This document shows, one piece after another, positions 1,977 through 53,541 of a stretch of DNA of 64,000 nt. The DNA is taken from IMG/VR virus record IMGVR_UViG_3300000917_000001. One strand, given 5' to 3'. Positions within the stretch are counted from its first letter, which is position 1, and every line of letters begins with the position of its first letter. The stretch comes from an uncultured virus (IMG/VR IMGVR_UViG_3300000917_000001). Lineage: Duplodnaviria > Heunggongvirae > Uroviricota > Caudoviricetes. The position numbers and the translations under genes are program-made. The notes under the pieces were generated by a model. The model was not told where the DNA came from and ran no database searches. It worked only from the letters and a program-made list of their open reading frames with translations.

Positions 1977-2059
1977 GTAGTCGCTCGTGGTGGTCCTCCT
2001 GGCGGGAGAGAGAGTGGAGTAATCGGGAACTTCACTCTCTCTTTTTTTATTCCTAACAA

Positions 2060-2564
2060 GTTCTCAGTGCCTCCGAGAACGGTTGACCAATTGTCCGTTA
2101 ACAATTGGGTGCTCGTCCCTTGCCTGGAGTGGGTTGAAGCTCGTATTGATGATAATACGCATTACTGCTTCAACCCACTCAAACTTAAATTAACGTATTT
2201 TTCTTGCATCTTGTTTGCTGCTTTTATAAGAAAAGCAGATTTTCAAAGCTTGTGTACTCTGCCTACTAAATGATGAGTATGTAAGTGGAGAGGAAACTAA
2301 TATAATTGGATTAAATTAATTGTAAAGTAATGCCCAGTCGCCCTTATGGGTCTAGAAGAGGGTAGGGTGGTGCTCATGAGCTCTTTAAGACAACCTAGAT
2401 AGTCGTTCATGAGAAGTCAGTATCCGTGGGTGAAGGAGGGAAATAATAATGTTATATTATTGTACCTTTAGATCCTGCGTAAATCTTGGCCGAGATGCAA
2501 GTTAAATTGAATGCTAGTGGAAAGTATAAGAGTGGTAGATCTTAAAAATCACTAGCATTTTTTT
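2060..2564 (+). ncRNA. Candidate structured non-coding RNA region
   Basis: At least 6 hairpins including a perfect 14-bp stem (2127-2140/2167-2180); ends in a stem plus T run; no SD-led ORF. Confidence 0.4.
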
Positions 2565-6949: not shown

Positions 6950-7111
6950 TCATTTTCTTACATATAAAGGTCTAGTATTATTTCTTATAACACATCTTTG
7001 TTTACACATAGATTTGACAATGCATGTTATACATGGGCATAATAATTTGACTCTCAAAAGACTTATTATGCAATTATCAATATTAAAACATCCTCTACAT
7101 TCCTTTCTCAT
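6950..7111 (-). CDS. Cys-rich mini-protein family member (53 aa, CPCITCIVKSMCKQRC)
   Basis: Translated by hand; not in the ORF track. Confidence 0.75.
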   Translation of the reverse strand: MRKECRGCFNIDNCIISLLRVKLLCPCITCIVKSMCKQRCVIRNNTRPLYVRK

Positions 7112-7368
7112 TTTGCTACCTTAGGCCTTGATTTAGGTTTAGCTTTAGGCATGTATTGTAGATTACCAAAATCATCTTCTAGAATATTCCACTCAATGGT
7201 TTCTACGTATAGTTGTCTTTCTACATGATAGATGCTATTTTTTAATGGTCCAAGAAAAGTTCTAGAATATTTAATTTCTTTATGAGGAAATATTACAGAT
7301 CTTTTATATATTACAGGGATTCTACAAGGATTTTTGTTTATTAGTATTCCAAGCTTGTTCATGATCAC
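7108..7368 (-). CDS. Hypothetical protein
   Basis: ORF packed within the minus-strand array. Confidence 0.55.
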   Translation of the reverse strand: MIMNKLGILINKNPCRIPVIYKRSVIFPHKEIKYSRTFLGPLKNSIYHVERQLYVETIEWNILEDDFGNLQYMPKAKPKSRPKVAK

Positions 7369-7546
7369 TCTCGATTAATGTAAACTCAGCTTCAAGATTC
7401 AATAAAGCTATAGATAGTTTTCTTGAATCAAAATTATCAATAACTTCTTCACACCAATCAAATATATCATCAAAAAACATAGCTATGATAGCACATACAA
7501 CGATAATAAAAACACCAAGAGCTATAAATAACATTATATTATTCAT
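7322..7546 (-). CDS. Small membrane protein
   Basis: N-terminal hydrophobic helix, AAGGAG SD. Confidence 0.6.
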   Translation of the reverse strand: MNNIMLFIALGVFIIVVCAIIAMFFDDIFDWCEEVIDNFDSRKLSIALLNLEAEFTLIESDHEQAWNTNKQKSL

Positions 7547-7736
7547 CTTCTACTCCTTTATAAAGTGGAGTAAATGGGTATATTCTAGAGTTACATGCTC
7601 TAACACACATAGCTTTAACAACGCAACTTTTACAAGGGCGTTCCTCTAATATTTTACGAATACCATCTGTTAAATGTTCAGCATATGGAAAACATTGGCC
7701 AATATCTTTTTGTACACAACCAATACAATCATCCAT
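7539..7736 (-). CDS. Cys-rich mini-protein family member (RPCKSCVVKAMCVRAC)
   Basis: Family motif. Confidence 0.8.
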   Translation of the reverse strand: MDDCIGCVQKDIGQCFPYAEHLTDGIRKILEERPCKSCVVKAMCVRACNSRIYPFTPLYKGVEDE

Positions 7737-7738
7737 AA

Positions 7739-8080
7739 TTAAACCTTACTTGGAATAAGAATATGTTTTGCAACAACCATAAATTCTTTATTGTCATATC
7801 CGTAAGCAACTGGTTCTCTATAATAAACTTTTCTGCACATCTTATCGTCTATTGGTTGAAGATATACATGAAAACCTAGCTCATAAATATCTCCAGATTC
7901 AGAAAATATAAATCCTTTTCTTTTATCCGTAATCCATCTATCTGTTTTAACCCTAGTTCTTGGATCACTGGGCCATTCTAATCTTTTATTAAATTTATCT
8001 ATAACTTGATATCCTATGAAATATGTATGTTCTATAGTTTGATAATCTTTAACACTACTATCAACTTCTGTTAATTTCAT
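7739..8080 (-). CDS. Hypothetical protein of a GFH-motif family (paralog of 8289-8657 and 16239-16649)
   Basis: Shared G(Y/W)x...W...YxxGFH...KV...G...V pattern. Confidence 0.75.
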   Translation of the reverse strand: MKLTEVDSSVKDYQTIEHTYFIGYQVIDKFNKRLEWPSDPRTRVKTDRWITDKRKGFIFSESGDIYELGFHVYLQPIDDKMCRKVYYREPVAYGYDNKEFMVVAKHILIPSKV

Positions 8081-8094
8081 AACTATATCCTTTC

Positions 8095-8292
8095 CTAATA
8101 ATTTCTAAAGCTTTTTCTTAGATCACTTCGTTTTTCACATATCTCGTTACACATTGGTTTTACTAAACATATTAAACATTGACATTTTTCAATGAGATGA
8201 AAACAAGATTCGCTTCTTATAATCCAACAATAATCTTTTTTATTACAACCAATACACCCTTTGTATTTGAGTTGTCCAACTATTATGGTCAT
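8095..8292 (-). CDS. Cys-rich mini-protein family member (CQCLICLVKPMCNEIC)
   Basis: Family motif. Confidence 0.8.
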   Translation of the reverse strand: MTIIVGQLKYKGCIGCNKKDYCWIIRSESCFHLIEKCQCLICLVKPMCNEICEKRSDLRKSFRNY

Positions 8293-8657
8293 ACAATATA
8301 CATCTTCTTAGCAACTATAATTCTAGCTCTATCCCTTCCATATCCTTCTATTCCTGTAGAATTTATTCCTTGTAATAAAACTTTTTTAATAACATATGGA
8401 CCAACAGCATATCCTCTTGCATGTTTTTGAGCAATTTTCTCTGTTGTATAACAATGGAATCCTGATAGATAATTTCCATCTTGACTAAAAAGCCATTGAC
8501 CCCTAGAGTTGTACCATTTTCCTATTTCATATTTTCTTGTAAAAGCATAATACGGAGTGAAAAATCCCAATGGTGTTACTCTAAATATTTTATATCCATA
8601 ATAGTTACCTTCGCTATCTCTAGAAACTTTGAACTTTTCTAATCTATCTAAACACAT
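8289..8657 (-). CDS. Hypothetical protein, GFH-motif family
   Basis: MCL start, GYKIF, YLSGFH. Confidence 0.75.
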   Translation of the reverse strand: MCLDRLEKFKVSRDSEGNYYGYKIFRVTPLGFFTPYYAFTRKYEIGKWYNSRGQWLFSQDGNYLSGFHCYTTEKIAQKHARGYAVGPYVIKKVLLQGINSTGIEGYGRDRARIIVAKKMYIV

Positions 8658-8920
8658 TCTCTATTCCTCTTTTCTTCTAGGTATTGTCTATATTTAAACG
8701 ATGTTCTAATTTTTATTGTTAGGTCATCCGCTAATATGGTTGTAAATGACGGATAAGTAAATATCCTTATTATTTCATTCCACCGTTCATATAAAGCAGA
8801 AGAACTTCTGTTGGAAATAAGCCATAATCCTAAGTAACTACATTTTAATGTTGAAATTATTGTGTTCCTTGATTTACATATAGGGAATATTAAACAATCT
8901 TTACATGGGATTGGATACAT
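8648..8920 (-). CDS. Cys-rich mini-protein family member (IPCKDCLIFPIC)
   Basis: Family motif, short type. Confidence 0.75.
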   Translation of the reverse strand: MYPIPCKDCLIFPICKSRNTIISTLKCSYLGLWLISNRSSSALYERWNEIIRIFTYPSFTTILADDLTIKIRTSFKYRQYLEEKRNRECV

Positions 8921-9125
8921 TTTCTTTTTCTGATAATAACTTTGAATAGTTATCAGCTAGTTGTTGATTCCAAAGAAAATTATTAAATTCAGATACTCTT
9001 GAAGAATTTTCAGTTAATGGCTCTTGAAAATATTCTTGAATAATATTACAATGAACAGGTTTACAATGTGAATATTTAGATCTACATAAAGGAAGGGTTA
9101 AACAATCAATACATGGTAGGCTCAT
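8901..9125 (-). CDS. Cys-rich mini-protein family member (LPCIDCLTLPLC)
   Basis: Family motif, short type. Confidence 0.75.
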   Translation of the reverse strand: MSLPCIDCLTLPLCRSKYSHCKPVHCNIIQEYFQEPLTENSSRVSEFNNFLWNQQLADNYSKLLSEKENVSNPM

Positions 9126-9262
9126 CCACCATACTCTAAGAATCCATCTACCCAGTCATCATACTGTTCTGAACCAGATGGGTATGGGCAATCTATAATT
9201 TTTTTTCCATCTTCAGCAGCGTCAGCACCTTCTTCATATTCATCCGAACTATCATCGTACAT
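9122..9262 (-). CDS. Ribosome-modulation-factor (Rmf)-like peptide, acidic, 46 aa
   Basis: Translated by hand: MYDDSSDEYEEGADAAEDGKKIIDCPYPSGSEQYDDWVDGFLEYGG; has the GxxA..G....CPY......WxxG(W/F) pattern. Confidence 0.6.
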   Translation of the reverse strand: MYDDSSDEYEEGADAAEDGKKIIDCPYPSGSEQYDDWVDGFLEYGG

Positions 9263-9266
9263 TTTA

Positions 9267-9464
9267 TCATACCTCCATTAATGGGTTTTTTCTTATTATT
9301 TCAGTTCTATCGTTACAACTACTTCTACAAATTGGTTTAACTAAACAAGTTAAACACGGACAAAGTTCTTTTTGTTCAATAATATTAAATGCGCATGATG
9401 TTTCTGCTCCTAATCTTTCCATAAAGCAATTAATACAATCGATCTTCTTTTCTGAAGGATTCAT
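9267..9464 (-). CDS. Cys-rich mini-protein family member (CPCLTCLVKPICRSSC)
   Basis: Family motif. Confidence 0.8.
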   Translation of the reverse strand: MNPSEKKIDCINCFMERLGAETSCAFNIIEQKELCPCLTCLVKPICRSSCNDRTEIIRKNPLMEV

Positions 9465-9615
9465 AACCTTTCTTTAAATACCTTCTGTATGAATCGGCTA
9501 TAGCAGATTCACTATACCCTAAACGTTCAGCAATAGTAGCATAAGTAATCTTTTCAATTTCTACCAACTTTACAATTCGTTTAATTACCTCTTGTGTTAT
9601 TATGTGGTTAACCAT
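9430..9615 (-). CDS. Helix-turn-helix DNA-binding protein
   Basis: TYATIAERLGYSESAI HTH pattern; start at MVNH after AAGGAG. Confidence 0.7.
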   Translation of the reverse strand: MVNHIITQEVIKRIVKLVEIEKITYATIAERLGYSESAIADSYRRYLKKGYESFRKEDRLY

Positions 9616-9616
9616 T

Positions 9617-9889
9617 TCATCTCCTTTTCCAAGTTTCACCTTTTCTATAAGCCAACTTAATCATTAGAACTGATTTATTATTCCAGCTATCAACTACAAC
9701 ATTAAGAGTTGGATCTTTTAATATTTCTCTTGCTTTAAACCATGCTTGTATATGTTCTTCATCATTAAAAATTGATTCAAGCCATTCTTTTAATATTGGA
9801 CATTGAATAATTCCAGCTTCTTTCTTTATTCTTGATCTACACATTACTAATATCATACATTGTTCACAAGGAATCTGATCCGACCGCAT
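9617..9889 (-). CDS. Cys-rich mini-protein family member (IPCEQCMILVMC)
   Basis: Family motif. Confidence 0.75.
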   Translation of the reverse strand: MRSDQIPCEQCMILVMCRSRIKKEAGIIQCPILKEWLESIFNDEEHIQAWFKAREILKDPTLNVVVDSWNNKSVLMIKLAYRKGETWKRR

Positions 9890-10076
9890 TCATAAAGTCC
9901 TCAAAAGTATAAGTATGAAGTTCATGTTTTAATCTAGCTTGTTTTAAAGCTTCAAATAAAACAATATACTCTTGTTGATATTTCATTAGGATTTGATATA
10001 CAGCTTGTTGTCTTACTTCTTCTTCAACATAAGGGTCTAAAACTATTTCTCCACCACTCCAGAATAATAGTCCCAT
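9864..10076 (-). CDS. Hypothetical protein, paralog of 4999-5184
   Basis: AGGAGG SD; first gene of a minus-strand unit, like its paralog. Confidence 0.7.
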   Translation of the reverse strand: MGLLFWSGGEIVLDPYVEEEVRQQAVYQILMKYQQEYIVLFEALKQARLKHELHTYTFEDFMNAVGSDSL

Positions 10077-10158
10077 TCATTTCCTCCTAGTTTTATTGTT
10101 TGTTCTAAACTCTTTAGTTTAGTTTTGAAATTCTATATATATTAATTTCTAATCGAGA

Positions 10159-10453
10159 AAATATTTTCTCGGTTGGAAGCATACGTTATAGATAGTCTCC
10201 TTTCTCAACTGGTAAGGCCACCGTGATGGGGCAGACTCAAGGGAAAGAAAGGATCAAAGATTATTATATAACACGTTGATGATCTAGCGGTTTGGAAAAA
10301 CTGAAACGAACCTCCGTTCTTGCGCCACGAATAAAAAATCCAGTCACCTTGCCTGAATGAAGCTTAGGATAGATGATTGGGTGCCTTTTGGCGTAGCGAG
10401 TTTTTCCAGTAAGATCCTTTAGCTCAATGCTGCTTCCAACCGAGAGAATATTT
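10159..10453 (+). ncRNA. Large multi-stem structured RNA or 5' leader, about 295 nt
   Basis: 23-bp closing stem (one G-U) with at least 5 nested stems; directly after promoter motif 10133-10146 and directly before an SD. Confidence 0.65.
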
Positions 10454-10466
10454 AAAGGAGGTTTGT

Positions 10467-10631
10467 ATGGATACATGCCTTTTCTGCGATGAGTTGGAAT
10501 GCAAGTGTAAATCCTGCAAAAACCATTTCCTTTTTGAAGGAGAATGTGTCTGTAAGTTCTTCGAAGACAGATCATTCTGCTTCATTTATCAAGCAAGGAT
10601 CATTCTATTACCTTTGGAGGTGCACACATGA
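10467..10631 (+). CDS. Small Cys-rich protein (54 aa, MDTCLFCDELECKCKSC...)
   Basis: Translated by hand; AAAGGAGG SD. Confidence 0.7.
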   Translation: MDTCLFCDELECKCKSCKNHFLFEGECVCKFFEDRSFCFIYQARIILLPLEVHT

Positions 10632-10729
10632 TTACAGTTATAAAAGATATTTCTATTGGCCTCTCTATGTGCTTTGGGGCTACATCTCTTCTCTTGATAC
10701 TATTTATAATCGGTGTGTCAAGATTGTGA
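10628..10729 (+). CDS. 33 aa hydrophobic peptide
   Basis: ATGA coupling with the previous gene, GGAGGTG SD, followed by a terminator. Confidence 0.55.
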   Translation: MITVIKDISIGLSMCFGATSLLLILFIIGVSRL

Positions 10730-10732
10730 GAG

Positions 10733-10770
10733 AAAAATAAGCTGGTCAGAGAACCAACCAGCTTATTTTT
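10733..10770. terminator. Bidirectional terminator
   Basis: AAAAATAAGCTGGT..ACCAGCTTATTTTT inverted repeat. Confidence 0.8.
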
Positions 10771-10972
10771 ATACATACGTTTTCCAACATCCAAGATCTT
10801 CATCAATAAACCATCCTAAATCTTCTAATAATTTTTTTGCACCTTCAGTTATCTTTTCATTATAAATAGATGGTCCAAATATTTCATCATGTTCAGTGGA
10901 TGGAAATGAATCACCTAATCCACAATCTTCAAAAATTTGAAATGCTAGTTTGAGTTTGCTTATTGTCGACAT
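10769..10972 (-). CDS. Hypothetical phage protein
   Basis: EHDEI..L.DLGW motif, GAGGT SD. Confidence 0.65.
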   Translation of the reverse strand: MSTISKLKLAFQIFEDCGLGDSFPSTEHDEIFGPSIYNEKITEGAKKLLEDLGWFIDEDLGCWKTYV

Positions 10973-10982
10973 TTGACATACC

Positions 10983-11165
10983 TCATGAAAAAGTTTTAAG
11001 TTCTATTCGATCCTCTAATTCCAGAACATTATGGAAAAGACAACAATCTCGTATCTTTCCATAGTTTATATAACGAAATATTCTTCCTGTTGGTGTTCTA
11101 ATTTTACAAATTATAACTTCTGATATACATATAAGCAACGTTATACAATCTTCACAAAGAATCAT
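10983..11165 (-). CDS. Cys-rich mini-protein family member (LCEDCITLLIC)
   Basis: Family motif. Confidence 0.7.
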   Translation of the reverse strand: MILCEDCITLLICISEVIICKIRTPTGRIFRYINYGKIRDCCLFHNVLELEDRIELKTFS

Positions 11166-11368
11166 GACATTAATCCTTGCTTTTTTAGAAAGAATTCTTT
11201 TATCTCAATATATATAAAGTCATTCCCCCAATGAATAGAAAAATACTCACATTTTATTTTATCCCATGACATATAGAAACCATAAGGAAATAACCCCATA
11301 TCATCTTTCCTAAATTTTATTTTGTTTATACAAATAGGTAGTTTTAAACACGAAATACATTCAATCAT
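11162..11368 (-). CDS. Cys-rich mini-protein family member (ECISCLKLPIC)
   Basis: Family motif. Confidence 0.7.
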   Translation of the reverse strand: MIECISCLKLPICINKIKFRKDDMGLFPYGFYMSWDKIKCEYFSIHWGNDFIYIEIKEFFLKKQGLMS

Positions 11369-11577
11369 GTTAACTCTGAATAAGCGTGAAGGAGTCTTTC
11401 AATAAGATCTTTTAAAGTTAGTTTATCTAAACCAATCCATGTAACTGGTTCTTTTCCAAAATCAACTATTAATACATTCTTTTCTTTATCAATAATCATT
11501 CTCATAAATAGTTCACCTTCATCATCTTCGCATATCTTCCCATTTGGAAAGTTTCCTGTTGCCCCAGCTTGTTCCAT
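11365..11577 (-). CDS. Hypothetical phage protein
   Basis: AAGGAG SD, coupled ORF. Confidence 0.7.
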   Translation of the reverse strand: MEQAGATGNFPNGKICEDDEGELFMRMIIDKEKNVLIVDFGKEPVTWIGLDKLTLKDLIERLLHAYSELT

Positions 11578-11578
11578 A

Positions 11579-11794
11579 TTATCTCCTTTCTAGATAACCA
11601 GCTTCAACTAGAAATAAAAGTTTTGCTTCAGTCCATACTGTTGTACCTTTACTTTTTAAAGACAAAAGTTCACATTTGTCAACAATAGGAGGAGTACAAA
11701 CGAAATATCCGAATGTTGATGCTCTATCTTTATAGATTATACTATTTGAAATACAAGAAGCTAAACTTATACAAACTTTACATGGAACTGCCAT
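11579..11794 (-). CDS. Cys-rich mini-protein family member (VPCKVCISLASC)
   Basis: Family motif. Confidence 0.7.
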   Translation of the reverse strand: MAVPCKVCISLASCISNSIIYKDRASTFGYFVCTPPIVDKCELLSLKSKGTTVWTEAKLLFLVEAGYLERR

Positions 11795-11801
11795 AAGTTG
11801 T

Positions 11802-12038
11802 TTATCTCCGCTTTTTTGAAGGATCTTCTTTAACTAAAAAATTTTCTGTTGGTCTTCCTGTTATCATGTGCATCGCAAACGCTTTATCAAAATCAGAAGC
11901 CTCATCAAATCCACATCCTTTTACCCAATGGTCCTCTTCCCATGCCGCATAGCATTTAGTTGGAGGTTGACCTCGCTTGGAATTACAACAAACTGAATTG
12001 GTATCTCTTCTACATCCTTGACAAACAAAGACTGTCAT
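11802..12038 (-). CDS. Cys-rich hypothetical protein
   Basis: AAGGAG SD, coupled ORF. Confidence 0.65.
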   Translation of the reverse strand: MTVFVCQGCRRDTNSVCCNSKRGQPPTKCYAAWEEDHWVKGCGFDEASDFDKAFAMHMITGRPTENFLVKEDPSKKRR

Positions 12039-12334
12039 TTATTTCTCCTTGGTTGAAATCCTACGTTCATATATAAAATCTTTTTCCTTTCAACTTTTGA
12101 AAGCATGTTTATCATTGAAGTTTCTTCATAACGCTTTAAAATTAACTTTGCATATTCTTTAGCATACTTTTCTACATATCCCCATTTTTTTATATATGCT
12201 ATTGAGTCTTTAATGAGAATACATTGATTTACTTTACACATAGCTTGAACTAAGCATTCTTTACATCTGTTATATATACAGTATGACTCATCACATGTAG
12301 TTCTTACTTCACATTTTTTACATTTATTAGGCAT
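12035..12334 (-). CDS. Cys-rich mini-protein family member with tandem motifs (CKKCEVRTTC, CKECLVQAMC)
   Basis: Two CxxC-x5-C units. Confidence 0.7.
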   Translation of the reverse strand: MPNKCKKCEVRTTCDESYCIYNRCKECLVQAMCKVNQCILIKDSIAYIKKWGYVEKYAKEYAKLILKRYEETSMINMLSKVERKKILYMNVGFQPRRNK

Positions 12335-19354: not shown

Positions 19355-20383
19355 TTAATATTCCTTCGAAACAAAAGACGTTACATATTGGTTTGTTTTT
19401 GACTTTATTCTTTTACAAATCTTTTCTTTTGGAACTTCAAAGTCACAACAAAAACCAAGAAGTGGGCATACTATTTCTTTTTCTAAAATAGGAAGAAAAT
19501 TTTCTTTCGAATCTTCAACATCAAATACCACTTTATTAGTAGTAAATTTACAATAGGAAACCTTTCCATAAGGATTTATATAAATTCCGTTTTTTCCTAC
19601 GAAACATTTATAATAGTTATTCTCATCATGTAGTGTATATAGAACTTCATTGTATGGTAAAACTTCTTCGCGAATAATTCCATCGTCTACATATTTGTAT
19701 TTTAACTCTATATCTTTTACTTTTTGTTGCGTTAATAAATATTGTGATAACTCTTCTGGTTTCCAATTAGATCCATGATCGTTTTTCATGTTTCTACTTA
19801 TTAAGTTTAAGTATACTTCACAGTTATTATATCCATTATATTTTTTATCAAAATAGTTAAATATATCAAAACATTCTTCTTTTTTTCTAGAGTCTGCCAT
19901 AACTTTTATTTTAAGAAGATCAATATTTGTTTTAATAATTTCTTCTGTATTTTTATCAAACTTTTCAAAATTTGCTTTTAGTGGATGAAATGATGACGTT
20001 ATACAAAGTTTACCATTTTTATTTGTGATGATTTCTTTATACAAATCAGAACTAGAACTTAGATTTGTATATAGCCTTATATATGGAACAATCTTATTAA
20101 CTATTTTAAAGATGTCTGGATCTATAGTTGGTTCTCCGCCATACAACTGAACTAAAACATTCTTTTTTGTTCCTAAAAAGTTTATAAAATTTATAATGCT
20201 TTCCTTTTTCTCCCAGCTTACAAATTTACTATCAGAATAAAAATCACAGTAGTCACATCTATAATTGCAAGAAAAAGTTGGTGGATAGAGAATGTAAAAC
20301 AAATTTGGATCTTTACTAAATTTGATATGTCCAACTTTTAAAATCTCAATTGGTTGAGTTATCACTTCTTTTTTATTCTCCAT
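19355..20383 (-). CDS. Radical SAM protein with twitch/SPASM-like C-terminus
   Basis: CNYRCDYC, GGEP, C-x-G...INPYGKVSYC. Confidence 0.9.
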   Translation of the reverse strand: MENKKEVITQPIEILKVGHIKFSKDPNLFYILYPPTFSCNYRCDYCDFYSDSKFVSWEKKESIINFINFLGTKKNVLVQLYGGEPTIDPDIFKIVNKIVPYIRLYTNLSSSSDLYKEIITNKNGKLCITSSFHPLKANFEKFDKNTEEIIKTNIDLLKIKVMADSRKKEECFDIFNYFDKKYNGYNNCEVYLNLISRNMKNDHGSNWKPEELSQYLLTQQKVKDIELKYKYVDDGIIREEVLPYNEVLYTLHDENNYYKCFVGKNGIYINPYGKVSYCKFTTNKVVFDVEDSKENFLPILEKEIVCPLLGFCCDFEVPKEKICKRIKSKTNQYVTSFVSKEY

Positions 20384-20919
20384 ATTCTAGTTGGAAATTT
20401 TTCAACAATATATCCAAATTCTTCAGCAAAACTATCAACAGCATGTATAACTCCTGGAAATGTAAGATCATAATCATGACCACAAATTATAGCATTTTCA
20501 CTACAATAATGAATATAAAAATTTAGTTCACTTAGAACTACTTCAAATATATGACGCCCATCTAAAAAAAGCATATCTATTTTCTTTCTATTCCATTTTT
20601 TTAATGGGGAAAAATTTGGAACTTGGATAATGTTATCTAAGTTATACTTTCTTTTTATTTCTAAAAAAACTCTTTTACTATCATCAACGTTAGGTTGATA
20701 CTTGCTTTTTCTAAGTATCCATGGATCTATTGTTAATAATATTGTTCCTGGAATTGAATTCTTTGACAAAACGTAAGAAGACCTTCCACAAAAAGTTCCA
20801 ACTTCAACTATTAAATTTCCTTGATCTTTAAGTTCTTTTAAAAAGTTACATAATGTTGTTAAATCATCATAAGTAGTTAAACCAGGTATATCCATATTTA
20901 TATTATTTGTTGTAATCAT
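20362..20919 (-). CDS. Class I SAM-dependent methyltransferase (Methyltransf_24-like)
   Basis: VEVGTFCGRS, IDPW, LFLDGRH, CGHDY. Confidence 0.88.
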   Translation of the reverse strand: MITTNNINMDIPGLTTYDDLTTLCNFLKELKDQGNLIVEVGTFCGRSSYVLSKNSIPGTILLTIDPWILRKSKYQPNVDDSKRVFLEIKRKYNLDNIIQVPNFSPLKKWNRKKIDMLFLDGRHIFEVVLSELNFYIHYCSENAIICGHDYDLTFPGVIHAVDSFAEEFGYIVEKFPTRIWRIKKK

Positions 20920-22748
20920 TTGTCTTTTCCTTTTAAGTCTAAAAAATAGTCTGTTGCTTCATAACATTTACTACATACAGCATCTGGTTTAGTATTAAAA
21001 TGTAAAACGTTCTTTTCTAACTTATAGAAATTTTTTTCATTAAGTTCAACATAGTTAGTAAAAAGAGCACTTTGTTTACAAAATAATATTTTATTTTCTG
21101 TAAAGTCAAACATAGGAAAGAAATAGTTGTCTCTACATATTTTTCTATACTGTTCTAGTTTTGTAGTTTTATCAAAATCTTGAATTCTTTTTACTATTCT
21201 TTGATATTCAAACTTATAATTAGAATAACTTAATAAATCGTTTAACATAATTCCATAATCGTTTTTTGTTAGTTGAAATCTATCGTTTTCATCTAAAGGA
21301 TTTTTTGGTTGATAATTTTGAAGCATCCACTGTTTCTTTGGTTCATTATTTCTTTCTATAAATTCTTTTATCTTTCCAATATTTTCATGATTTACTACAA
21401 AGAGATAGATTAATTTTGGATCATCAATATTTATTTCCATTCCTCTTTGTATACGAACATGTAGAATAACTTGTTCGATTTTATCATAAAATTCTTTAAA
21501 ATAACCCTTAGTAATAAACAATCCATTCGTACAAATTCTTAACTTTTTGTCAAAGCTAAAAATATATTTTAAAAGATCATGATTTAGTAATCCTAGTTCA
21601 CCACCATTAATATATAATGGAATATCTTTATATTTTTCTATGATTCTAGGAAAGAATTTTCTAAAAGATTCTTCATCAATATCTTTCATTTCTTTTAAAA
21701 GTGGTCTGTCACAATATTCACAAATCCAATTACATTTTTGAGTTACTATCATACATACAATATAAGGTTTAGTACAACTCTCACTAGTTCGTTCTTTAGG
21801 AACACTTACTTCAGCTCGACAATTATAAGAGTAGCATATTTTTTTATCTTTAACTACTTTATCGTAGTTAATATCTTCTTCAAATAAATTACATAGTTTA
21901 TTGTTTTCCCATTCTTCATAAGTACAACGAAAAATATCTCCATTTTCATTTATTATTATATGTCTATTTCCAGCTTCACATTCATAACCATAGAAATTAC
22001 ATTGTCCAAGGAAATCTGTTTTAACATCTAGTAATCTAATATGGTTAAATGTTAGACTTTTAGTTGAAACATTTCCTTCTTCATCAACATATTCAACAAT
22101 ATGATCTTTTACTTTATCATTATTATGTTCTTTTTTATAGAAGTCAAGATCTTCATCTGTAAATTTAGAATCTTTATTTATTATTAGATCTAGAGAGCAG
22201 TTAAATAATTCATGCTTTTCTAACCTTTTAAACTCATTATAAACTTGTAGTATTTCTTTCTTGTATAAAGGATCCCACATAACTTTTGTAGTGATAGGAA
22301 TATTATTCTTTAGGATTAGCTCAACTTTGTTAACAAAGGTATTGAAGTCTGCTTTCTGATAATGAAATGATGTTAAAAACTTCACGAATTTTCTTCTAGA
22401 AATCAATTCTTTTAATTTATCTTCTTCTATAGATAAGTTTGTAAAATAATGTAATGGATATTTACTTTGTTTAAGATTTTCAATAATATAAAATAGGTCT
22501 GGATGAACAAGAGGCTCACCACCATATAATGTTAATCTTAAGTTATACTTATCTGATAAATAATTACAAAAATTTATTATCTTTTGTAAGTGTTCTTTAT
22601 TCTTATATTGTTGTTCTTTCCAAGTATCACAGTAAGAGCATTTATAGTTGCATTGTTTAGATATCGACCACGTACATGAAAAAAACAATGGGTCTTCATA
22701 ACATTTCTGGTATGTTTTTATTATGGGATTACGATTTTGATAATACAT
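20916..22748 (-). CDS. Two-domain radical SAM fusion protein
   Basis: CNYKCSYC/GGEP and a second CNWICEYC/GGEL. Confidence 0.9.
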   Translation of the reverse strand: MYYQNRNPIIKTYQKCYEDPLFFSCTWSISKQCNYKCSYCDTWKEQQYKNKEHLQKIINFCNYLSDKYNLRLTLYGGEPLVHPDLFYIIENLKQSKYPLHYFTNLSIEEDKLKELISRRKFVKFLTSFHYQKADFNTFVNKVELILKNNIPITTKVMWDPLYKKEILQVYNEFKRLEKHELFNCSLDLIINKDSKFTDEDLDFYKKEHNNDKVKDHIVEYVDEEGNVSTKSLTFNHIRLLDVKTDFLGQCNFYGYECEAGNRHIIINENGDIFRCTYEEWENNKLCNLFEEDINYDKVVKDKKICYSYNCRAEVSVPKERTSESCTKPYIVCMIVTQKCNWICEYCDRPLLKEMKDIDEESFRKFFPRIIEKYKDIPLYINGGELGLLNHDLLKYIFSFDKKLRICTNGLFITKGYFKEFYDKIEQVILHVRIQRGMEINIDDPKLIYLFVVNHENIGKIKEFIERNNEPKKQWMLQNYQPKNPLDENDRFQLTKNDYGIMLNDLLSYSNYKFEYQRIVKRIQDFDKTTKLEQYRKICRDNYFFPMFDFTENKILFCKQSALFTNYVELNEKNFYKLEKNVLHFNTKPDAVCSKCYEATDYFLDLKGKDK

Positions 22749-23706
22749 TATCCCTCCGAATTTGGGAAATTATTCTTTTTCTTGGTAATAAGTGTTCACA
22801 ACAAAAGGCATTTAACTTACAGATAACAGGAACACTAAATACTTGATCGTATTTATTGTAGTCATCTTCTATAACGTTGAAGATCGGTTTAACTCCTTCA
22901 AAATATGAAGACATACAAATTAGAACGTCACCATTAGGAGATATAAAGATCCCTCGTTTTCCTGTGTCACATCTATACATATAATATTTTGGAAATCCAG
23001 AAAAAATTCTTCGTATTTCATTATATGATAATTCTTTTGTTTTAGGTTCTTCTCCTTCATTTTCAATATATACTATTTTAAATTCTTTATTATCTTGAAC
23101 AGAATCAAATTTTTCTAAATCATCGCTAGTCCATGGAAAATTATCATGATAAACTAGATCTAGAAAAGCTACATAATTTGAATGAGTGCTCTCAAGTTGT
23201 TTCATTGACTGAAATATCTTAAAAATTTCTTCTTTATGCCTAGGATCCCAAAGAACTTTTACTTTAACTAATTTAACATTATCAATCAAAAAGTTTATTT
23301 TTTCTTTAAACTCTTCAAAGTTTGATCTTTCATAATGGTATGTACTACAGATTGTAATATCAGGTTTTGTTTGCGCTAAGTCTTTAAAGAATTTTAGACT
23401 ATGACTAAGATTAGTCATAGCTATAAGGTCAGTAGTTTTTATTTGTTTAACAATATTTAAAATATCTGGATGTAGAAGAGGTTCCCCTCCAAATAAAGCA
23501 GCCCAAACTTGATATCCTAAAGATTCAATATGGTTTATATAGTTTATTATCTTTGTAGTTTTTTCTTCATTTAAATAAGGTTCAAATTTTTGATGAACAC
23601 CACAATAGTCGCAGTTATAATTACAGTTGTTAGATACACTCCAATGTAGACTGAATAACTTCTGATTTTCAAAAAAGTCTTTTCTTCCTACTTCTAAAAT
23701 TTCCAT
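22729..23706 (-). CDS. Radical SAM protein with twitch-like C-terminus
   Basis: CNYNCDYC, GGEP, ISPNGDVLIC. Confidence 0.9.
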   Translation of the reverse strand: MEILEVGRKDFFENQKLFSLHWSVSNNCNYNCDYCGVHQKFEPYLNEEKTTKIINYINHIESLGYQVWAALFGGEPLLHPDILNIVKQIKTTDLIAMTNLSHSLKFFKDLAQTKPDITICSTYHYERSNFEEFKEKINFLIDNVKLVKVKVLWDPRHKEEIFKIFQSMKQLESTHSNYVAFLDLVYHDNFPWTSDDLEKFDSVQDNKEFKIVYIENEGEEPKTKELSYNEIRRIFSGFPKYYMYRCDTGKRGIFISPNGDVLICMSSYFEGVKPIFNVIEDDYNKYDQVFSVPVICKLNAFCCEHLLPRKRIISQIRRDNVLSKS

Positions 23707-24626
23707 TATTGTTTCCTTTTTGAAATAGTTAAATCATAACAAAAAGATTCTATTGGGCATTCACCTTCTTCATTTTCACTAAATAAAGGTTCCTTAAATA
23801 TATTAAACATTGGTGATTTTATATAAAATAACTCATTACATCTAAATACGTCTCCGTTTGAATCTATCGTTAAAGAATCTTTACTAGAATTACATATAAA
23901 TCCTTTATAGTTTTCTATATTTTCTCTACACATTTTAATTGCTTCTGGGTAAGAGACTTCTTGTTGTTTTTGTTTACCATCTTCTTCATAGAAAATTAAA
24001 AAATCTTTTGATATAGTTAATGATTCTATAAAGTCCAGATCTTCTTTATCCCAAGCAAAAAATGGATGTCTAGGAATATCTAAGTATACTTTCAAATTTG
24101 AATATTTTTCTTCTAATTTTTTAGCTTCTTTATATACATCTAAAGTATAGTCTTTATTTCGTATATCCCAAAATACTTTAGAAGAAACAAAATGAATCCT
24201 AGGAGTTATATACTCCAAAGTTTCTAAATAATCTTTTGGCCAAATAAAGGGATAATGATATTCTGCATCTATATGTATTTCTGGTTGAACTGAATCCATA
24301 AAATTACTAAAGATATCATATCCATGGCTGCTATTTGTTTTTATTCGTAACCTTGTTGTTTTAATTCTTTTAACTATATCAATAATATTTGGGTGAAGAA
24401 GAGATTCTCCACCAGTTAAAGTAAGTATAACTTTTCTTCCAGATTCTTCTATACTATTAATATAATCTATTATTTTGTTACATTTTTCTAATTTCAAAAA
24501 GTCTTCATCTTTCTTAATTCCACAATATATACACTTATAGTTACATTTTTTTGTAACAAACCATGAAATATTAAATAGATCTTGATCTTCAATAAAATCT
24601 TTTCTTCCAACTTTCAGTATATTCAT
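23706..24626 (-). CDS. Radical SAM protein with twitch-like C-terminus
   Basis: CNYKCIYC, GGES, IDSNGDVFRC. Confidence 0.9.
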   Translation of the reverse strand: MNILKVGRKDFIEDQDLFNISWFVTKKCNYKCIYCGIKKDEDFLKLEKCNKIIDYINSIEESGRKVILTLTGGESLLHPNIIDIVKRIKTTRLRIKTNSSHGYDIFSNFMDSVQPEIHIDAEYHYPFIWPKDYLETLEYITPRIHFVSSKVFWDIRNKDYTLDVYKEAKKLEEKYSNLKVYLDIPRHPFFAWDKEDLDFIESLTISKDFLIFYEEDGKQKQQEVSYPEAIKMCRENIENYKGFICNSSKDSLTIDSNGDVFRCNELFYIKSPMFNIFKEPLFSENEEGECPIESFCYDLTISKRKQ

Positions 24627-24627
24627 T

Positions 24628-25677
24628 TTATCTCCTAAAATATAAGATATCTTTTATTACTTCACCTTCGATTGGTTTATAAGCTTCAGACCCAAATATT
24701 CTATTATTATTCTTCCATATTCCTTCACATATTGGAAAGCAACTACATTTTAAACATGAAAATTTATAACCAGAAACATCTTTAATAGTTTCATATATTG
24801 CTTCCATTTCTAAATCAACTTTATCTTTCCATGTTTTTGGAGGTGGAATAGGAATATCCCTTCTAATACAATCTAAGATTCTAATAGCATATTCGGTCCA
24901 ATCAAATGGATCAAATGCTCTTTGAATATACATGGAAACATATTTTTCATACTTATGCATTAAACAAAAGGGAATATATCTAACATTTATAACAATATCT
25001 TTGTCTAACATATCTATTGCTTCTTTTATATAAACTACTGACTCTGTCAAATTAATAACATTACCTTCTGGTTTTGCAGAATTTTCAACTCTAAATGGTA
25101 AAAAATTAAAAGAATGTGGTTTTATATTGTTAACTAGTTCAGCAATCATTGGCAATTCTTTATAATTGTCTTTTGTTACAACAGTATTTATTCTTATTAG
25201 GATTCCTAATTCCAATGCCTTATCAATAGCCCTCATTATCTTTCTAAATGAACCTTTAACTCCTGTCATCGCATCATGAATTTCATTTGTTGGTCCATGC
25301 AGAGAAAATAGAACCTCATTCAATCCATGTTCAATACTTTTTTGAAAGAATTGTTTAGAGGATAGTTTATATCCGTTACTTATAACAGAAATTTTTCTAA
25401 ATCTATATTTAACTAAGTTATCCAAAAGATCAAACCAATACGGAAGAATAGTTGGTTCTCCACCACTAATATCCCAGTCAGTTATCCCAAGCTTCTTTCC
25501 TATATCAATTTGTTTATAGATTTCTGGTTGAATATCTTTTGCTTCTAACCCTCTATAGAAGCAAAATTTACAATCAATATTACATAGATAACCAGTAAAC
25601 AATCTTGCTCTTGCTGTTATTGGATCATCTATTCTTTTTACAACTTTTCTAAAATCAAAGTTATATAGCTTTTCCAT
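24628..25677 (-). CDS. Radical SAM protein (PqqE/HxsC-like architecture)
   Basis: CNIDCKFC, SGGEPT, SLHG..HD..TG..GSF, YIPFC, CxxC-x5-CEG. Confidence 0.9.
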   Translation of the reverse strand: MEKLYNFDFRKVVKRIDDPITARARLFTGYLCNIDCKFCFYRGLEAKDIQPEIYKQIDIGKKLGITDWDISGGEPTILPYWFDLLDNLVKYRFRKISVISNGYKLSSKQFFQKSIEHGLNEVLFSLHGPTNEIHDAMTGVKGSFRKIMRAIDKALELGILIRINTVVTKDNYKELPMIAELVNNIKPHSFNFLPFRVENSAKPEGNVINLTESVVYIKEAIDMLDKDIVINVRYIPFCLMHKYEKYVSMYIQRAFDPFDWTEYAIRILDCIRRDIPIPPPKTWKDKVDLEMEAIYETIKDVSGYKFSCLKCSCFPICEGIWKNNNRIFGSEAYKPIEGEVIKDILYFRR

Positions 25678-25678
25678 T

Positions 25679-26611
25679 TCACAACCTATAAATGAAATCT
25701 TTGAAGTTCACAAATAGCTTCTTTTCAATTTCTTGTTTAGATATTTTTAAAGGAACATGATCTTTTAATCCATCTATACCAAATAGTTTCAAATAGTAGA
25801 ATAAACCATCCTCCATAAATAAACCATCTGCATAATAGTTTACCGTTTTTCCATGGTATAAATGTTCAAAGATTGTTTTCCCCATGTTTTCAGCATATTT
25901 TTCTTCGTAGATTTCTCCTTTCTGTTTATTTGTTCTTCTATAATCTAATACATTAGATAATCCTCTTTGAGTTTGAGATAACAGATCCATTCTTTTCTTA
26001 CTAAACTTAATATAATGAATAACTTGATTAAAGTTACTTTTTCTTATATTTGCTGGATTAACTAAAAAAGTACAATTATCAGTTGGAACAGCTTTATCAA
26101 GATCTGGATAAACTCCTAACTTACTTCTAAAAATATCTAATGAATCCATCACGTACATTTTCTTACATTTTAGTTTTAGATCAACATCTTCTTGGAGCAT
26201 TTCAAACAAGATTCTACCTGTACATATTATAGTATCAGCTTCAAAGTCAACTGGGAGGTACACTAATTTATTATGTAGAGATATATCTCCAAAGTTTTTA
26301 TTCAGTTGCATAAAGGGAATTGCGCTAGTAAACATTTCACTATTTGTATCTTCAATCTTAAAAACAGGTGTGTTATCTATATCTAAACTATTATTTAAGT
26401 ATTTATAATACTTGATTCTTTTTAAATCAATAAAAGGATAAAGAATAGATTTTTCAGGTTCTTTTTCGTTTAGTAGAAACAATTCTGGACATATTATTTT
26501 GAAATCAATTTCTAAATCTGGCCTTATTAGTTTGATATTATTATACAAGTCAATCATTGAGGTCATAACACCATCAACAACGCTTTTATAATAATGTAGA
26601 ATCAAAATCAT
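25679..26611 (-). CDS. Putative GT-B-like glycosyltransferase
   Basis: DGVMTS N-terminal loop; ENMGKTIFEHLYHGK resembles the GT-B E-x7-E motif; start after GGAGG. Confidence 0.45.
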   Translation of the reverse strand: MILILHYYKSVVDGVMTSMIDLYNNIKLIRPDLEIDFKIICPELFLLNEKEPEKSILYPFIDLKRIKYYKYLNNSLDIDNTPVFKIEDTNSEMFTSAIPFMQLNKNFGDISLHNKLVYLPVDFEADTIICTGRILFEMLQEDVDLKLKCKKMYVMDSLDIFRSKLGVYPDLDKAVPTDNCTFLVNPANIRKSNFNQVIHYIKFSKKRMDLLSQTQRGLSNVLDYRRTNKQKGEIYEEKYAENMGKTIFEHLYHGKTVNYYADGLFMEDGLFYYLKLFGIDGLKDHVPLKISKQEIEKKLFVNFKDFIYRL

Positions 26612-27545
26612 ATTTTTCCTCCAGAATTTGTTCAACAATTTTAATTACTTCATCATTCTCATTAAGAAATAAACCTTTAAAATCTTCCATTGTATCTTTA
26701 TATCTATAGTATCCTCCAGATTTTGTTTCCATCATTTCATCGAAATACATTATTTCTTTCCCATAAAATTTACATTCTGGAATCAGTCTTGGTGTTGCAT
26801 CAAAACCATCATTATAAGGAAGATAAACAAAGGTTTTAAATAATCCCATAAATTCTTCAACAGGAGGAACTATAAGTGCTGCTCGGCCTTCTTCTTGAAC
26901 CCAAGCATAATAATCTTTATTTTTTTGCCCAGTATATAAAGCAACAGACCCACCTAACTCATCAAAAAGAGATAGAATATATTCTCTTGAGTATCTTCTT
27001 GTTACTAAAGATACATTAAGCATATAGTCATATTTAGCAGAATATTCTTTCTTTTTGAACTTATCAAACAAAATCTTTTTTCTATACGGTTTCCAATTTA
27101 TCCCTTTATAATTAAAAACTCTTTCATCAGCTAAAGTTAAACTATTTTTATATAATTTAGTTTGTTTTGGATGAATGTCTTTATAATCAGCTAATCCAAG
27201 ATAGAACTTGGTAGATAACATATTCCCATTTTGCAAAATCCAATATATAGCTGAGTTGGTTGCGCAAAATAAAATATCTGAGCAAGCAACTGGTTCTCTT
27301 AGAAGTTTCCCGCAAAAATATGGACCAATTAATATATGTTCAAATACTTCTTCTTCTATATTTTCATATTTGTCTGTAAGAATCTTAACAACATCTTCTT
27401 TAGGATGATCTGTTAATAATCTAAAGATTACATTGCAATCTGTAAAATGTTTCTTTATCAAATAGTAGTATTCAAAATTGTCGAAAAACCCTCCATTAAC
27501 TATACATTGGTCATAAAAAAGAAACATTATTGTTTTTTTAGACAA
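26586..27545 (-). CDS. Putative GT-B-like glycosyltransferase
   Basis: NGGFFD loop; FDATPRLIPECKFYGKEI; paralog of 30977-31786. Confidence 0.45.
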   Translation of the reverse strand: MSKKTIMFLFYDQCIVNGGFFDNFEYYYLIKKHFTDCNVIFRLLTDHPKEDVVKILTDKYENIEEEVFEHILIGPYFCGKLLREPVACSDILFCATNSAIYWILQNGNMLSTKFYLGLADYKDIHPKQTKLYKNSLTLADERVFNYKGINWKPYRKKILFDKFKKKEYSAKYDYMLNVSLVTRRYSREYILSLFDELGGSVALYTGQKNKDYYAWVQEEGRAALIVPPVEEFMGLFKTFVYLPYNDGFDATPRLIPECKFYGKEIMYFDEMMETKSGGYYRYKDTMEDFKGLFLNENDEVIKIVEQILEEKYDFDSTLL

Positions 27546-27554
27546 TGGCCTCTC

Positions 27555-28895
27555 CTAAGATCTTTTTATAAAACGATTCTTAAAATTACTTTTATGATGA
27601 GCTATTGGTTTTTCTGGAATTTCTTTTCGTATTCTTTCAAGTCTTTTATCTACAATTTCTCTACTAAGATCATCAATAAAAAATTCAGATTGGATATCTG
27701 TACCTGGGAAATAAGAGAATGTAATACCAAACTCTTCTGGATGATTATACATATAAGAACCAGGAAATACCCTAAATGAAGTTGGCCAAATTGTTAATTT
27801 ATCTCCATATTTTTTACGAAGCCCAATCATAATCTTTAAATCTTTTTCAAATACTTCATCTGTATCTCCTGGTAATCCACAAATTCTTGAACAATAAGCT
27901 TCAACATCATTTTTCATATAAATATCAAGACTCTTTAATGTTTGTTCAACTGTTTGCTTTTTGTTTATTAACTTTAAAACATCATCATTAAAAGAGTCTG
28001 AACCAAATAAAACTCTTTTCAAATTTGAATCTTTTGGTATATCTTCTATCATATGTACTGGGTTAACAAAACTCATCCAATCTTCTACTTTACATCTTTT
28101 CATTATATTAGCTACTTTAGAAAATCTATCTGAAGTAATATTAACATTATCATCATTTAATTCTACATATTTAACTCCTCTTGAAATCATAAGGTCTAAA
28201 TATTCTTCAAATTTTTTTAAGTTGCAATCAACAAACTTTCTATCACTAGCGCAAAAATAACAGTTGTTATTGCATCCATATGAAGTAAGAGTTGATAAAG
28301 TATTATTAGATAATGTTATATCAATCCTATCATGCATTGGCCAAAAATCCGTTACAAATGGTCCTACTATATATCTCTCTGTAGCTTTGTTATGATAAAT
28401 ATTATAAAGTGGTAAACATCCGTCATATTTTACAACAAAATCTGCTATATTTTTTTCAAGAAGAAATTTAGAATATTTATCTCCTAAAGATATATGATAT
28501 CCTCCAAATACGGTTTTTACTTTTGGGTTTCGTTTCTTGACTATCAACGCAAATAAAACAAAGAAGTAATGACTTATTACAGTTGTTGAAAACCCAAAAA
28601 TATCATTATCATTTACTTCTATTGTATTTGCTAGATTTACTATTACATTTGATAGGTCTGACTTGTCTCCTTCTAAATCCCCATTTAAAGATCTCATAAT
28701 AGAGTTATATCTTGGCATATCTTGACATATACCAAATTTTCTAAAACTATTTGGTTCTATATCAGAGTCATTAAACCAAAAATCATATGTAGTAGTTTCT
28801 ATATCTCTATTTTTTAAATATCCTTGTAAAATTCTAATTGGGGAACATCTAGATGATGAAGACATTGTATTATTAATAGCTACTAGATTAATCAT
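27555..28895 (-). CDS. B12-binding-domain radical SAM protein (class B methylase-like)
   Basis: IFGFST, FGGYH, TSYGCNNNCYFC, DDN, GLPGDT. Confidence 0.85.
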   Translation of the reverse strand: MINLVAINNTMSSSSRCSPIRILQGYLKNRDIETTTYDFWFNDSDIEPNSFRKFGICQDMPRYNSIMRSLNGDLEGDKSDLSNVIVNLANTIEVNDNDIFGFSTTVISHYFFVLFALIVKKRNPKVKTVFGGYHISLGDKYSKFLLEKNIADFVVKYDGCLPLYNIYHNKATERYIVGPFVTDFWPMHDRIDITLSNNTLSTLTSYGCNNNCYFCASDRKFVDCNLKKFEEYLDLMISRGVKYVELNDDNVNITSDRFSKVANIMKRCKVEDWMSFVNPVHMIEDIPKDSNLKRVLFGSDSFNDDVLKLINKKQTVEQTLKSLDIYMKNDVEAYCSRICGLPGDTDEVFEKDLKIMIGLRKKYGDKLTIWPTSFRVFPGSYMYNHPEEFGITFSYFPGTDIQSEFFIDDLSREIVDKRLERIRKEIPEKPIAHHKSNFKNRFIKRS

Positions 28896-28898
28896 TTT

Positions 28899-32427: not shown

Positions 32428-32444
32428 TTCAATCTCCTTTAGTA

Positions 32445-48440: not shown

Positions 48441-48493
48441 TAGTAATGGGAGGGGACTAGTTCCCCTCCCAAAAAACTTTTAGGAGGTTAGAA

Positions 48494-48802
48494 TTGAAAA
48501 AACGTCTTCCAAGAGAAGAAAGGTTTCCTACAAAAACAGATATTAAAGGTATAAAAAGATGGCTTAATAAATCTAACGAAATAAAAAAGACGGATTGCCC
48601 ATTTGAAAGGTACGAACCTTCAAGTCACTGGCCTCATTGGAAATGTACTTTGATTTTTCATACTCTTATTAGAAAAAGAAATAAAGATATGAAAAAAAGA
48701 GGATGGTGTNGAATGTGTCCTTGTGATTACTATACTCTCAATCATATTGAAAAAACCGCAAAGAACCTTATTAAAAGGTATGAACATGGTAAAAATAGAT
48801 GA
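48494..48802 (+). CDS. Small Cys-containing hypothetical protein
   Basis: AGGAGGT SD; contains an ambiguous base at 48710. Confidence 0.6.
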   Translation: MKKRLPREERFPTKTDIKGIKRWLNKSNEIKKTDCPFERYEPSSHWPHWKCTLIFHTLIRKRNKDMKKRGWCXMCPCDYYTLNHIEKTAKNLIKRYEHGKNR

Positions 48803-53260: not shown

Positions 53261-53292
53261 TAATTAATTAGTATATATATTAATTACTGTAA

Positions 53293-53518: not shown

Positions 53519-53541
53519 AATATTAAACTTAGGAGGTTAGA

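Follow-up and report, generated by a model that had tools for sequence, protein, structure and literature searches.

The locus described here lies in a 64,000-nt stretch of DNA (hereafter, the window) from an uncultured virus (IMG/VR record IMGVR_UViG_3300000917_000001; Caudoviricetes). On its plus strand, a promoter-like motif is followed by an RNA of about 295 nt (10159-10453), which is the subject of this analysis, and then by a Shine-Dalgarno (SD) sequence, two small open reading frames (ORFs), and a terminator-like hairpin (Table 1). The source is a large tailed phage; among the genes of the window are those for a major head protein, a portal protein, and a tail spike-like protein. A related major capsid protein (62-83% identity) occurs in 28 IMG/VR records, whose contigs reach 277 kb, and the whole phage genome was put at roughly 250 kb, of which the window covers 64 kb. 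Searches of sequencing runs detected window DNA in soil and wetland metagenomes.

The minimum free energy (MFE) structure of the RNA is a three-way junction of the helices P1, P2, and P3. The plus strand of 10147-10466 folds at -110 kcal/mol, compared with a shuffle mean of -78 kcal/mol (z = -6.36; 0/100 shuffles equalled it), and the GC content at 10200-10399 is 0.445, with 0.26-0.32 in the flanks. P1 closes the structure with 23 uninterrupted base pairs (22 Watson-Crick and one G-U), exactly as a reading of the letters alone (the sequence-only reading) had drawn it. The MFE helices of P2 are 10185-10197/10259-10272 and 10198-10204/10247-10253, while the inner stems of P3 are 10293-10302/10399-10408, 10320-10327/10389-10396, 10338-10346/10374-10382, and 10352-10356/10364-10368. 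These four nested P3 stems had also been foreseen. Three further pairings proposed with them (10248-10255/10413-10420, 10258-10266/10277-10285, and 10194-10198/10233-10237) are truly complementary but absent from the MFE structure; they compete with P2 and P3 helices that are backed by compensatory change in the homolog described below, which has no equivalents of them. G-U pairs account for 14/107 pairs. Neither sequence repeats nor covariance models built per arm (R1 for P3, R2 for P2) revealed a second copy of the RNA in the 64-kb window.

Table 1. Features of the RNA and its cassette in the window (positions count from the first letter of the 64-kb stretch).
Feature	Position	Strand	Remarks
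Promoter-like motif CTATATATATTAAT	10133-10146	+	Copy of a recurrent motif; putative promoter
Other copies of the motif (examples)	121, 1032, 2709, 5229, 18768, 19032, 42095, 54242	- at 18768 and 19032	From the motif scan
Perfect 18-nt palindrome over the P1 start	10154-10171	both	Wider imperfect arms 10147-10162/10163-10178 (88%)
P1, 5' arm (closing helix)	10159-10181	+	Pairs with 10431-10453
P2 arm	10185-10272	+	13-bp basal helix, a further helix, and the invariant apex as cap
Invariant apical block AACTGGYAAGGCCACCGTGATGGGGCAGACTCAAGGGAAAG	10207-10247	+	41 nt; from comparison with L058
P3 arm	10275-10423	+	Length varies; UUGAUG at the base (10276-10281), CCUGAAU near the tip (10352-10358)
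P1, 3' arm	10431-10453	+	Contains CCGAGAG (10440-10446)
SD GGAGG	10457-10461	+	5 nt ahead of ATG 10467
ORF1	10467-10631 (including stop)	+	54 aa, nine Cys
ORF2	10628-10729	+	33-aa hydrophobic peptide; own GGAGG; ATG overlaps the ORF1 stop (ATGA)
Bidirectional terminator-like hairpin	10733-10746/10757-10770	both	Perfect 14-bp stem; A-run before, T-run after

A homolog was found by scanning metagenome contigs with a 20-mer of the P2 apex, which returned two loci. One of them (L059) lies inside a 482-aa ORF of a GC-rich organism and was discarded as a chance match. The other, L058, is a 2.5-kb contig from a different, GC-richer phage and carries a relative of the RNA at about 65-316. The 41-nt apical block is identical at 40/41 positions (L058 114-154), whereas outside it 95 of the 211 aligned columns are identical (45%), with 45 gap columns.

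The divergence outside the block permitted a count of compensatory changes. The P2 alignment comprises 18 pairs, with all cells paired in both RNAs (35 cells), and nine of these pairs are changed on both sides; three pairs of the window that are not formed in L058 (alignment columns 19-70, 20-69, and 24-65) are excluded from this count. Sliding the partners by 1-3 columns as a control gave 0-2 double changes, compared with the nine observed. For P1, the alignment was anchored on the CCGAGAG common to both copies. Among its 23 aligned pairs, 11 are the same, two show one-sided and eight two-sided changes, and two are unpaired in L058, whose P1 has 24 pairs with two mismatches. In L058 (302-308), CCGAGAG persists although bases opposite it have changed and two pairs are lost, which suggests a constraint on the sequence itself. 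The P3 arm of L058 is shorter (179-290). In our own register, with the conserved words taken from an alignment, it has the same base helix after UUGAUG, a second helix that is different yet complementary, and the CCUGAAU hairpin.

The two strands do not fold equally well. The minus strand of 10147-10466 reaches -92.9 kcal/mol (z = -4.5), weaker than the plus strand. When both copies were compared, the values were -109.8 kcal/mol (plus) and -92.6 kcal/mol (minus) for the window RNA and -84.8 kcal/mol (plus) and -61.7 kcal/mol (minus) for L058, so that the plus strand has an advantage of 17-23 kcal/mol. In L058, 19/91 pairs are G-U. This folding bias and the G-U pairs favour an RNA helix rather than a DNA inverted repeat. 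A DNA-level element, such as an inverted repeat resembling a miniature inverted-repeat transposable element (MITE), an attP core, an operator array, or a replication origin, would account for the 23-bp inverted repeat, for a third copy of its 20-mer at 10147-10166, and for a short near-identical block in otherwise diverged phages, as attP cores can be. However, the element is single-copy in the 64-kb window, its arms differ at 8/23 pairs on both sides yet stay complementary, the G-U pairs would be A-C mismatches on the other strand, and the internal helices covary as well. Furthermore, a 23-mer of the block was sought in prokaryote genomes, one for each of 185,579 species, and had no exact match, and no integrase or transposase domain was detected in the 79 window ORFs or five L058 ORFs. 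We consider a DNA-level element most improbable. The palindrome over the P1 start, which had already been noticed from the letters, may serve as an operator or as a kinetic trap at the 5' end; since it is missing from L058, it is probably not essential to the family.

No known RNA family accounts for the element. Rfam 15 gave no match at the gathering score over the 64-kb window, the matches at E <=10 on 9900-11000 were noise (best 19.7 bits, compared with a threshold of 107.3), and L058 1-420 gave two noise matches. ARAGORN detected 0 tRNA or tmRNA genes in the window. The earlier failure to match the RNA to tmRNA, RNase P, signal recognition particle RNA, 6S RNA, or an intron is consistent with these searches, which also covered Y RNA, GOLLD, ROOL, HEARO, group I and II introns, riboswitches, and ribozymes. 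A retron-like or other reverse-transcriptase template RNA, in which the inverted repeat and the two hairpin domains would form an msr-msd, was also considered. The a1/a2-closed msr-msd architecture resembles the present RNA in that an inverted repeat closes two hairpin domains; on the other hand, no reverse transcriptase stands beside either copy, none of the ORFs scanned (79 in the window, five in L058) has such a domain, and a terminator closes the cassette after two small ORFs. This reading is the least probable of all those weighed here.

Further relatives were sought at the level of both sequence and structure. A blastn search with 10100-10780 against GenBank phages gave no match, the apex gave just 18-24-nt chance matches to phages at E <=10, and the RNA had none in plasmids. 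Five exact 17-23-mers of the RNA had 0 matches each in viral contigs. Against the 28 related giant-phage records, blastn with the RNA returned matches of at most 37 nt, the recurrent ones in coding sequence, and model R1 matched 0/28 of them. Model R2 matched 5/33 records at E 0.07-0.33, none with the apex block, and one of these matches (L066) falls inside a 242-aa ORF. In prokaryote genomes, a 17-mer of the block occurred in at least 120 stretches; the best among the 119 scored was identical at 30/49 positions including the 17 fixed letters, which marks these as chance matches. A literature text search did not find the apex block sequence, and a keyword search of the literature found nothing relevant.

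Based on the comparison, we regard the RNA as an uncatalogued phage RNA family of two members whose predicted fold is well supported. The proposal of the sequence-only reading, a new phage noncoding RNA or regulatory leader, is supported by the missing Rfam family, the compensatory change, the plus-strand bias, and the RNA-library contigs presented below; an Rfam family match and a multi-copy MITE-like element were both looked for, and neither was found. Phage genomes, those of giant phages especially, contain much noncoding sequence of unassigned use, and a defined fold is available for few phage RNA families. The present analysis offers an RNA of about 295 nt with a comparatively supported three-way junction and a module frozen between unrelated phages, present in environmental RNA libraries. 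GOLLD and ROOL are likewise phage-borne, strongly structured, and found in environmental RNA. The present RNA differs from them in being two to three times smaller, in lacking an Rfam score and adjacent tRNA genes, and in being fused to an SD and ORFs.

Several other interpretations of the strand and its motifs were set aside. A minus-strand 103-aa ORF (10264-10575) was dismissed as spurious, given that it overlaps a gene with a genuine relative (ORF1) and that the conservation pattern of the RNA does not follow it. Readings of the RNA as a kink-turn or C/D-box (GUGAUGG with CUGA), as a tRNA anticodon mimic, or as a T-box were dropped, the required partner sequences being absent.

Contigs that are 99-100% identical to the RNA occur in two metatranscriptome runs, each from a different study. 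In one of them (X9), a 269-nt contig lies on 10194-10462 with a single difference (10384 C>T), and in the other (X10), a 152-nt contig lies on 10179-10330 with no difference. The C>T change also occurs in DNA runs and sits in an unpaired loop, making it uninformative on the fold. No joints were seen and there is thus no sign of circularisation. Within 9400-11400, neither RNA run yielded a contig covering the flanking genes, ORF1, or ORF2; this missing cover is not counted as evidence.

The layout downstream of the RNA is common to the two copies. In the window, the RNA is followed after 3 nt by GGAGG, the 54-aa ORF, the 33-aa ORF, and the terminator; in L058, P1 is followed by 6 nt, GGAGG with an ATG, a 60-aa ORF, a 51-aa ORF, and a 17-pair terminator-like hairpin (760-797). 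No similarity was found between the ORFs of the two cassettes.

The interpretation that we prefer, although tentatively, is that 10159-10453 acts as a modular 5' leader, with P1 as a clamp that stabilises the transcript and the invariant apex as the docking point of a conserved factor. A short plus-strand transcript would run from a putative start at the promoter-like motif (10133) to the terminator at 10733-10770, with the RNA as its 5' part. P1 would tie the 5' end of this transcript to the bases just upstream of the first SD, and might thereby shield the 5' end and block 3'-to-5' decay, so that the leader would outlive the message. The apex would be the docking site for a conserved trans factor, possibly a protein, the ribosome, or a small ligand. 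Once docked, this factor would set the stability or translation of the downstream ORFs, presumably in cis. Such a leader would be the head of a promoter-leader-small-ORFs-terminator cassette able to carry different cargo genes. That the RNA head is kept while the small genes are exchanged suggests a portable device for expression or stability, which would be relevant to phage biology and RNA engineering, and the 41-nt module is an obvious bait for a search for binding partners.

A stand-alone, stable noncoding RNA acting in trans is a possible but less likely alternative. It would be released by an RNase III-type cleavage in P1 or left by 3' decay, and would act through its apex on a host or phage factor, with the ORFs as passengers. 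This alternative draws support from the large, complex fold and from the frozen module, which two unrelated phages have in common although their downstream ORFs are unrelated, and the RNA-library contigs cover the RNA. Moreover, the uninterrupted 23-bp duplex of the window P1 falls in the length class of RNase III substrates. Processing stalks of RNase III include the leader-trailer helices of rRNA, the hairpins of phage T7 early mRNAs, and the lambda N leader hairpin. As in these, a long near-perfect duplex joins the 5' and 3' sides of a structured RNA, here beside a translation start region in a phage transcript, and a duplex of about 20 bp or more is present in both the window (23 bp) and L058 (24 pairs, two mismatches). 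Unlike the phage stalks, which are simple hairpins, P1 encloses a 250-nt two-armed insert with an invariant module. Release is disfavoured by the X9 contig, which spans the whole P1 3' arm unbroken to 10462 without a joint, by the two mismatches in the L058 P1, and by the region after P1, where neither copy has a terminator ahead of the first ORF or any other 3'-end signal and the SD follows within 3-6 nt. Because a 3'-end signal is missing and the SD is fused to P1, we favour the leader over a free RNA. A bolder version of the trans-acting model seems less likely again: the RNA would represent a new class of horizontally mobile trans-acting phage RNA, with the apex as a decoy or ligand of a universal host machine (ribosome, RNA polymerase, or RNase), P1 as a processing and stability signal, and the ORFs as interchangeable passengers. 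The two phages with the block are unrelated and have very different GC contents. If it acts in trans, the RNA would join the few phage RNAs directed at host machinery.

Several points weigh against the leader reading. The family has two members, and every count therefore rests on one pairwise comparison. A three-way junction of about 295 nt with an invariant 41-nt module exceeds what a stabiliser needs and would suit a free noncoding RNA equally well. The docking partner of the apex is a postulate, and the only complementary target of at least 10 nt found in the window was one A/T-rich 10-mer. The metatranscriptome contigs are evidence of presence, blind to strand, ends, and level, and DNA is possible in such libraries. 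Finally, a conserved SD switch was not found: in L058 the SD is open (P(unpaired) >0.9), with a penalty of 4.4 kcal/mol when pairing is imposed on it, while the window SD is predicted in the MFE structure to pair with ORF1 codons (10478-10482) and not with the leader.

This last result also bears on a metabolite- or ion-sensing riboswitch, in which the invariant block and the junctions would form the aptamer and the ligand would alter access to the SD. Like T-box and cobalamin leaders, the RNA has the appropriate size class, lies in a 5' untranslated region directly before an SD, and shows a conserved core between covarying stems (two-sided changes in 9/18 P2 and 8/23 P1 pairs, from two sequences). 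By our reading, pyrimidine tracts complementary to the SD occur inside both RNAs (window 10197-10203 and 10311-10315; UCUCCAUU in the L058 P3). However, switchable P1 helices are far shorter than the 23-26 bp found here. Neither a conserved SD-sequestering alternative nor an intrinsic terminator after the RNA was found, the genes downstream are small ORFs that are unrelated and fall into no metabolic family, and no Rfam riboswitch matched. The lack of a conserved SD-hiding switch weakens the case for a classical riboswitch in particular, and we regard this explanation as improbable.

The apical block could alternatively encode the start of a leader peptide. In such an upstream ORF device, the block would supply the ribosome binding site, the start (GUG-AUG, 10223-10228), and the first seven codons, and translation would peel away the 3' strand of P2 and thereby refold the leader. 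Both copies have an open frame from the conserved AUG (MGQTQGK and then differing tails; 17 codons in the window, 19 in L058), with AAGG 8 nt upstream, and by our reading both frames stop near the P2/P3 junction (UGA at window 10277-10279 and L058 189-191). Nevertheless, neither the 19 nt ahead of the AUG nor any of the seven third-codon positions differs between the copies of an RNA that is otherwise 45% identical, suggesting a constraint at the RNA level and not on the peptide. The peptide tails are unrelated, the conserved UUGAUG falls in different frames in the two copies, and open frames of about 18 codons often arise by chance. A leader-peptide device thus appears quite improbable.

The genes of the window cassette correspond to those that had been read from the letters: the SD right after the closing stem, the Cys-rich ORF1, the hydrophobic peptide downstream, and the bidirectional terminator are all in place. 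An exhaustive HMMER search gave one relative of ORF1, P0001 (69 aa; 60% identity over 45 residues, E 8.8e-9), encoded on a 1134-nt contig. Since the Cys pattern is kept in this relative, we consider ORF1 a real gene. A further match, P0002, was discounted as a repetitive protein of 459 aa, and a weak match of the ORF1 alignment in G014 (E 0.009) lies inside a 221-aa frame. ORF1 had no match in Pfam or PHROG, no relatives of it were found in viral contigs or by a word-index search, and the Atlas yielded no usable match. ORF2 had no family match; its membrane character is read from its sequence. The hairpin at 10733-10770 closes both the plus-strand cassette and a convergent minus-strand gene (10769-10972).

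The 33-aa hydrophobic peptide gene, the long helix folding the 5' end back on downstream sequence, and the bidirectional terminator would fit a type I toxin-antitoxin-like message of the hok type, in which a folded 5' untranslated region with 5'-3' pairing would hold back translation of ORF2. In L058, however, the two ORFs behind the RNA look soluble and neither is a hydrophobic peptide. Translational coupling links ORF2 to ORF1 and not to the leader, and a scan of the cassette, which was a weak one, detected no minus-strand promoter-like site and no antisense RNA gene. A toxin-antitoxin message is highly improbable. Each of the type I toxin, MITE, attP, and retron readings fails on a defining feature.

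The ORFs of the L058 cassette, like those of the window cassette, belong to no family. An ATPase-like ORF of L058 has relatives on viral contigs of 30-50 kb; nothing resembling the RNA was found within 3 kb of five phage loci related to it. The open-ended 236-aa ORF at L058 1431-2138 (plus strand) contains GTGKS, which is Walker A-like, and the acidic stretch DEESDE, and has 53-59% identical relatives on five viral contigs. We take this ORF to be terminase-like from these motifs, though it is unnamed by Pfam and PHROGs.

The promoter-like motif at the head of the cassette, also pointed out by the sequence-only reading, recurs across the phage DNA. We counted seven exact copies of CTATATATATTAAT in the 64 kb and 17 copies with at most two mismatches, compared with 4.8 expected by chance. 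At least six of the 12 copies with at most one mismatch have an SD and an ATG within about 40 nt downstream; the copy at 10133 has a leader of about 320 nt instead. Over 12 sites, the consensus extends to about tttCTATATATATTAATwyTtaa, usually 20-40 nt ahead of an SD and ATG. A diverged copy of the motif stands in another context on a 201-nt contig of one DNA run. The motif probably represents a promoter class of the phage itself, early or middle.

The surroundings of the cassette vary among related phages. The flanking genes are small, lie on the minus strand, and belong to no Pfam or PHROG family. The adjoining genes (70 aa and 67 aa) have relatives in 0/28 of the related records, and two larger nearby genes in just 3/28 and 1/28, which places the cassette in a hypervariable region. 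PeSL (promoter-early stem-loop) cassettes of T4-type phages are units of an early promoter and a terminator stem-loop that flank small non-essential ORFs in hyperplastic regions with shuffled cargo (PMC2839356; Arbiol et al. 2010). The present cassette may resemble those units in its recurrent promoter-like motif, terminator hairpin, unrelated cargo ORFs, and hypervariable neighbourhood. It differs in that the units described there contain no large structured RNA between promoter and gene (PMC2839356), whereas the conserved element here is the RNA and not the promoter or terminator.

Two other regions of the window are strongly folded. Right after the motif copy at 53271, a second long structured leader occupies 53285-53545 (plus strand; MFE -90.2 kcal/mol, z = -3.6). 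Two copies of the repeat GCCCCGUGGA lie within this leader, and a 13-bp GC hairpin forms its end, closely followed by the SD and ATG (53542) of an ORF of 111 aa whose start resembles a signal peptide. Rfam gave no match to the leader, which is unrelated to the RNA at 10159-10453. The second region, 2045-2560 (plus strand), consists of about 500 nt without a convincing ORF (GC about 0.40, compared with 0.30 for the genome; MFE -153 kcal/mol, z = -5.3) and lies between a terminator at about 2007-2047 and the motif copy at 2709. It may be another noncoding RNA.

Many Cys-rich ORFs of 53-99 aa lie on the minus strand at 6950-12334. They fall into at least two motif families, one with C..C.....C near the N-terminus and the other with CPC..C[LIV]VK..C, and have no Pfam or PHROG match. 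At least eight radical SAM ORFs stand in a row at 19358-34104 (minus strand), two with weak SPASM hints and one with a B12-binding hint; among or just beyond them are methyltransferase, polysaccharide deacetylase, sulfotransferase-like, and glycosyltransferase-like ORFs. This run appears to be a modification or biosynthesis cluster, unusually large for a phage. With such a cluster nearby, the Cys-rich ORFs could encode its peptide substrates or small zinc proteins. At 47322-51292 (plus strand), adjacent ORFs give weak matches to a PP2C phosphatase and, below the cut-off, to the Cas6 N-terminal domain (E 6e-4) and a protein kinase domain.

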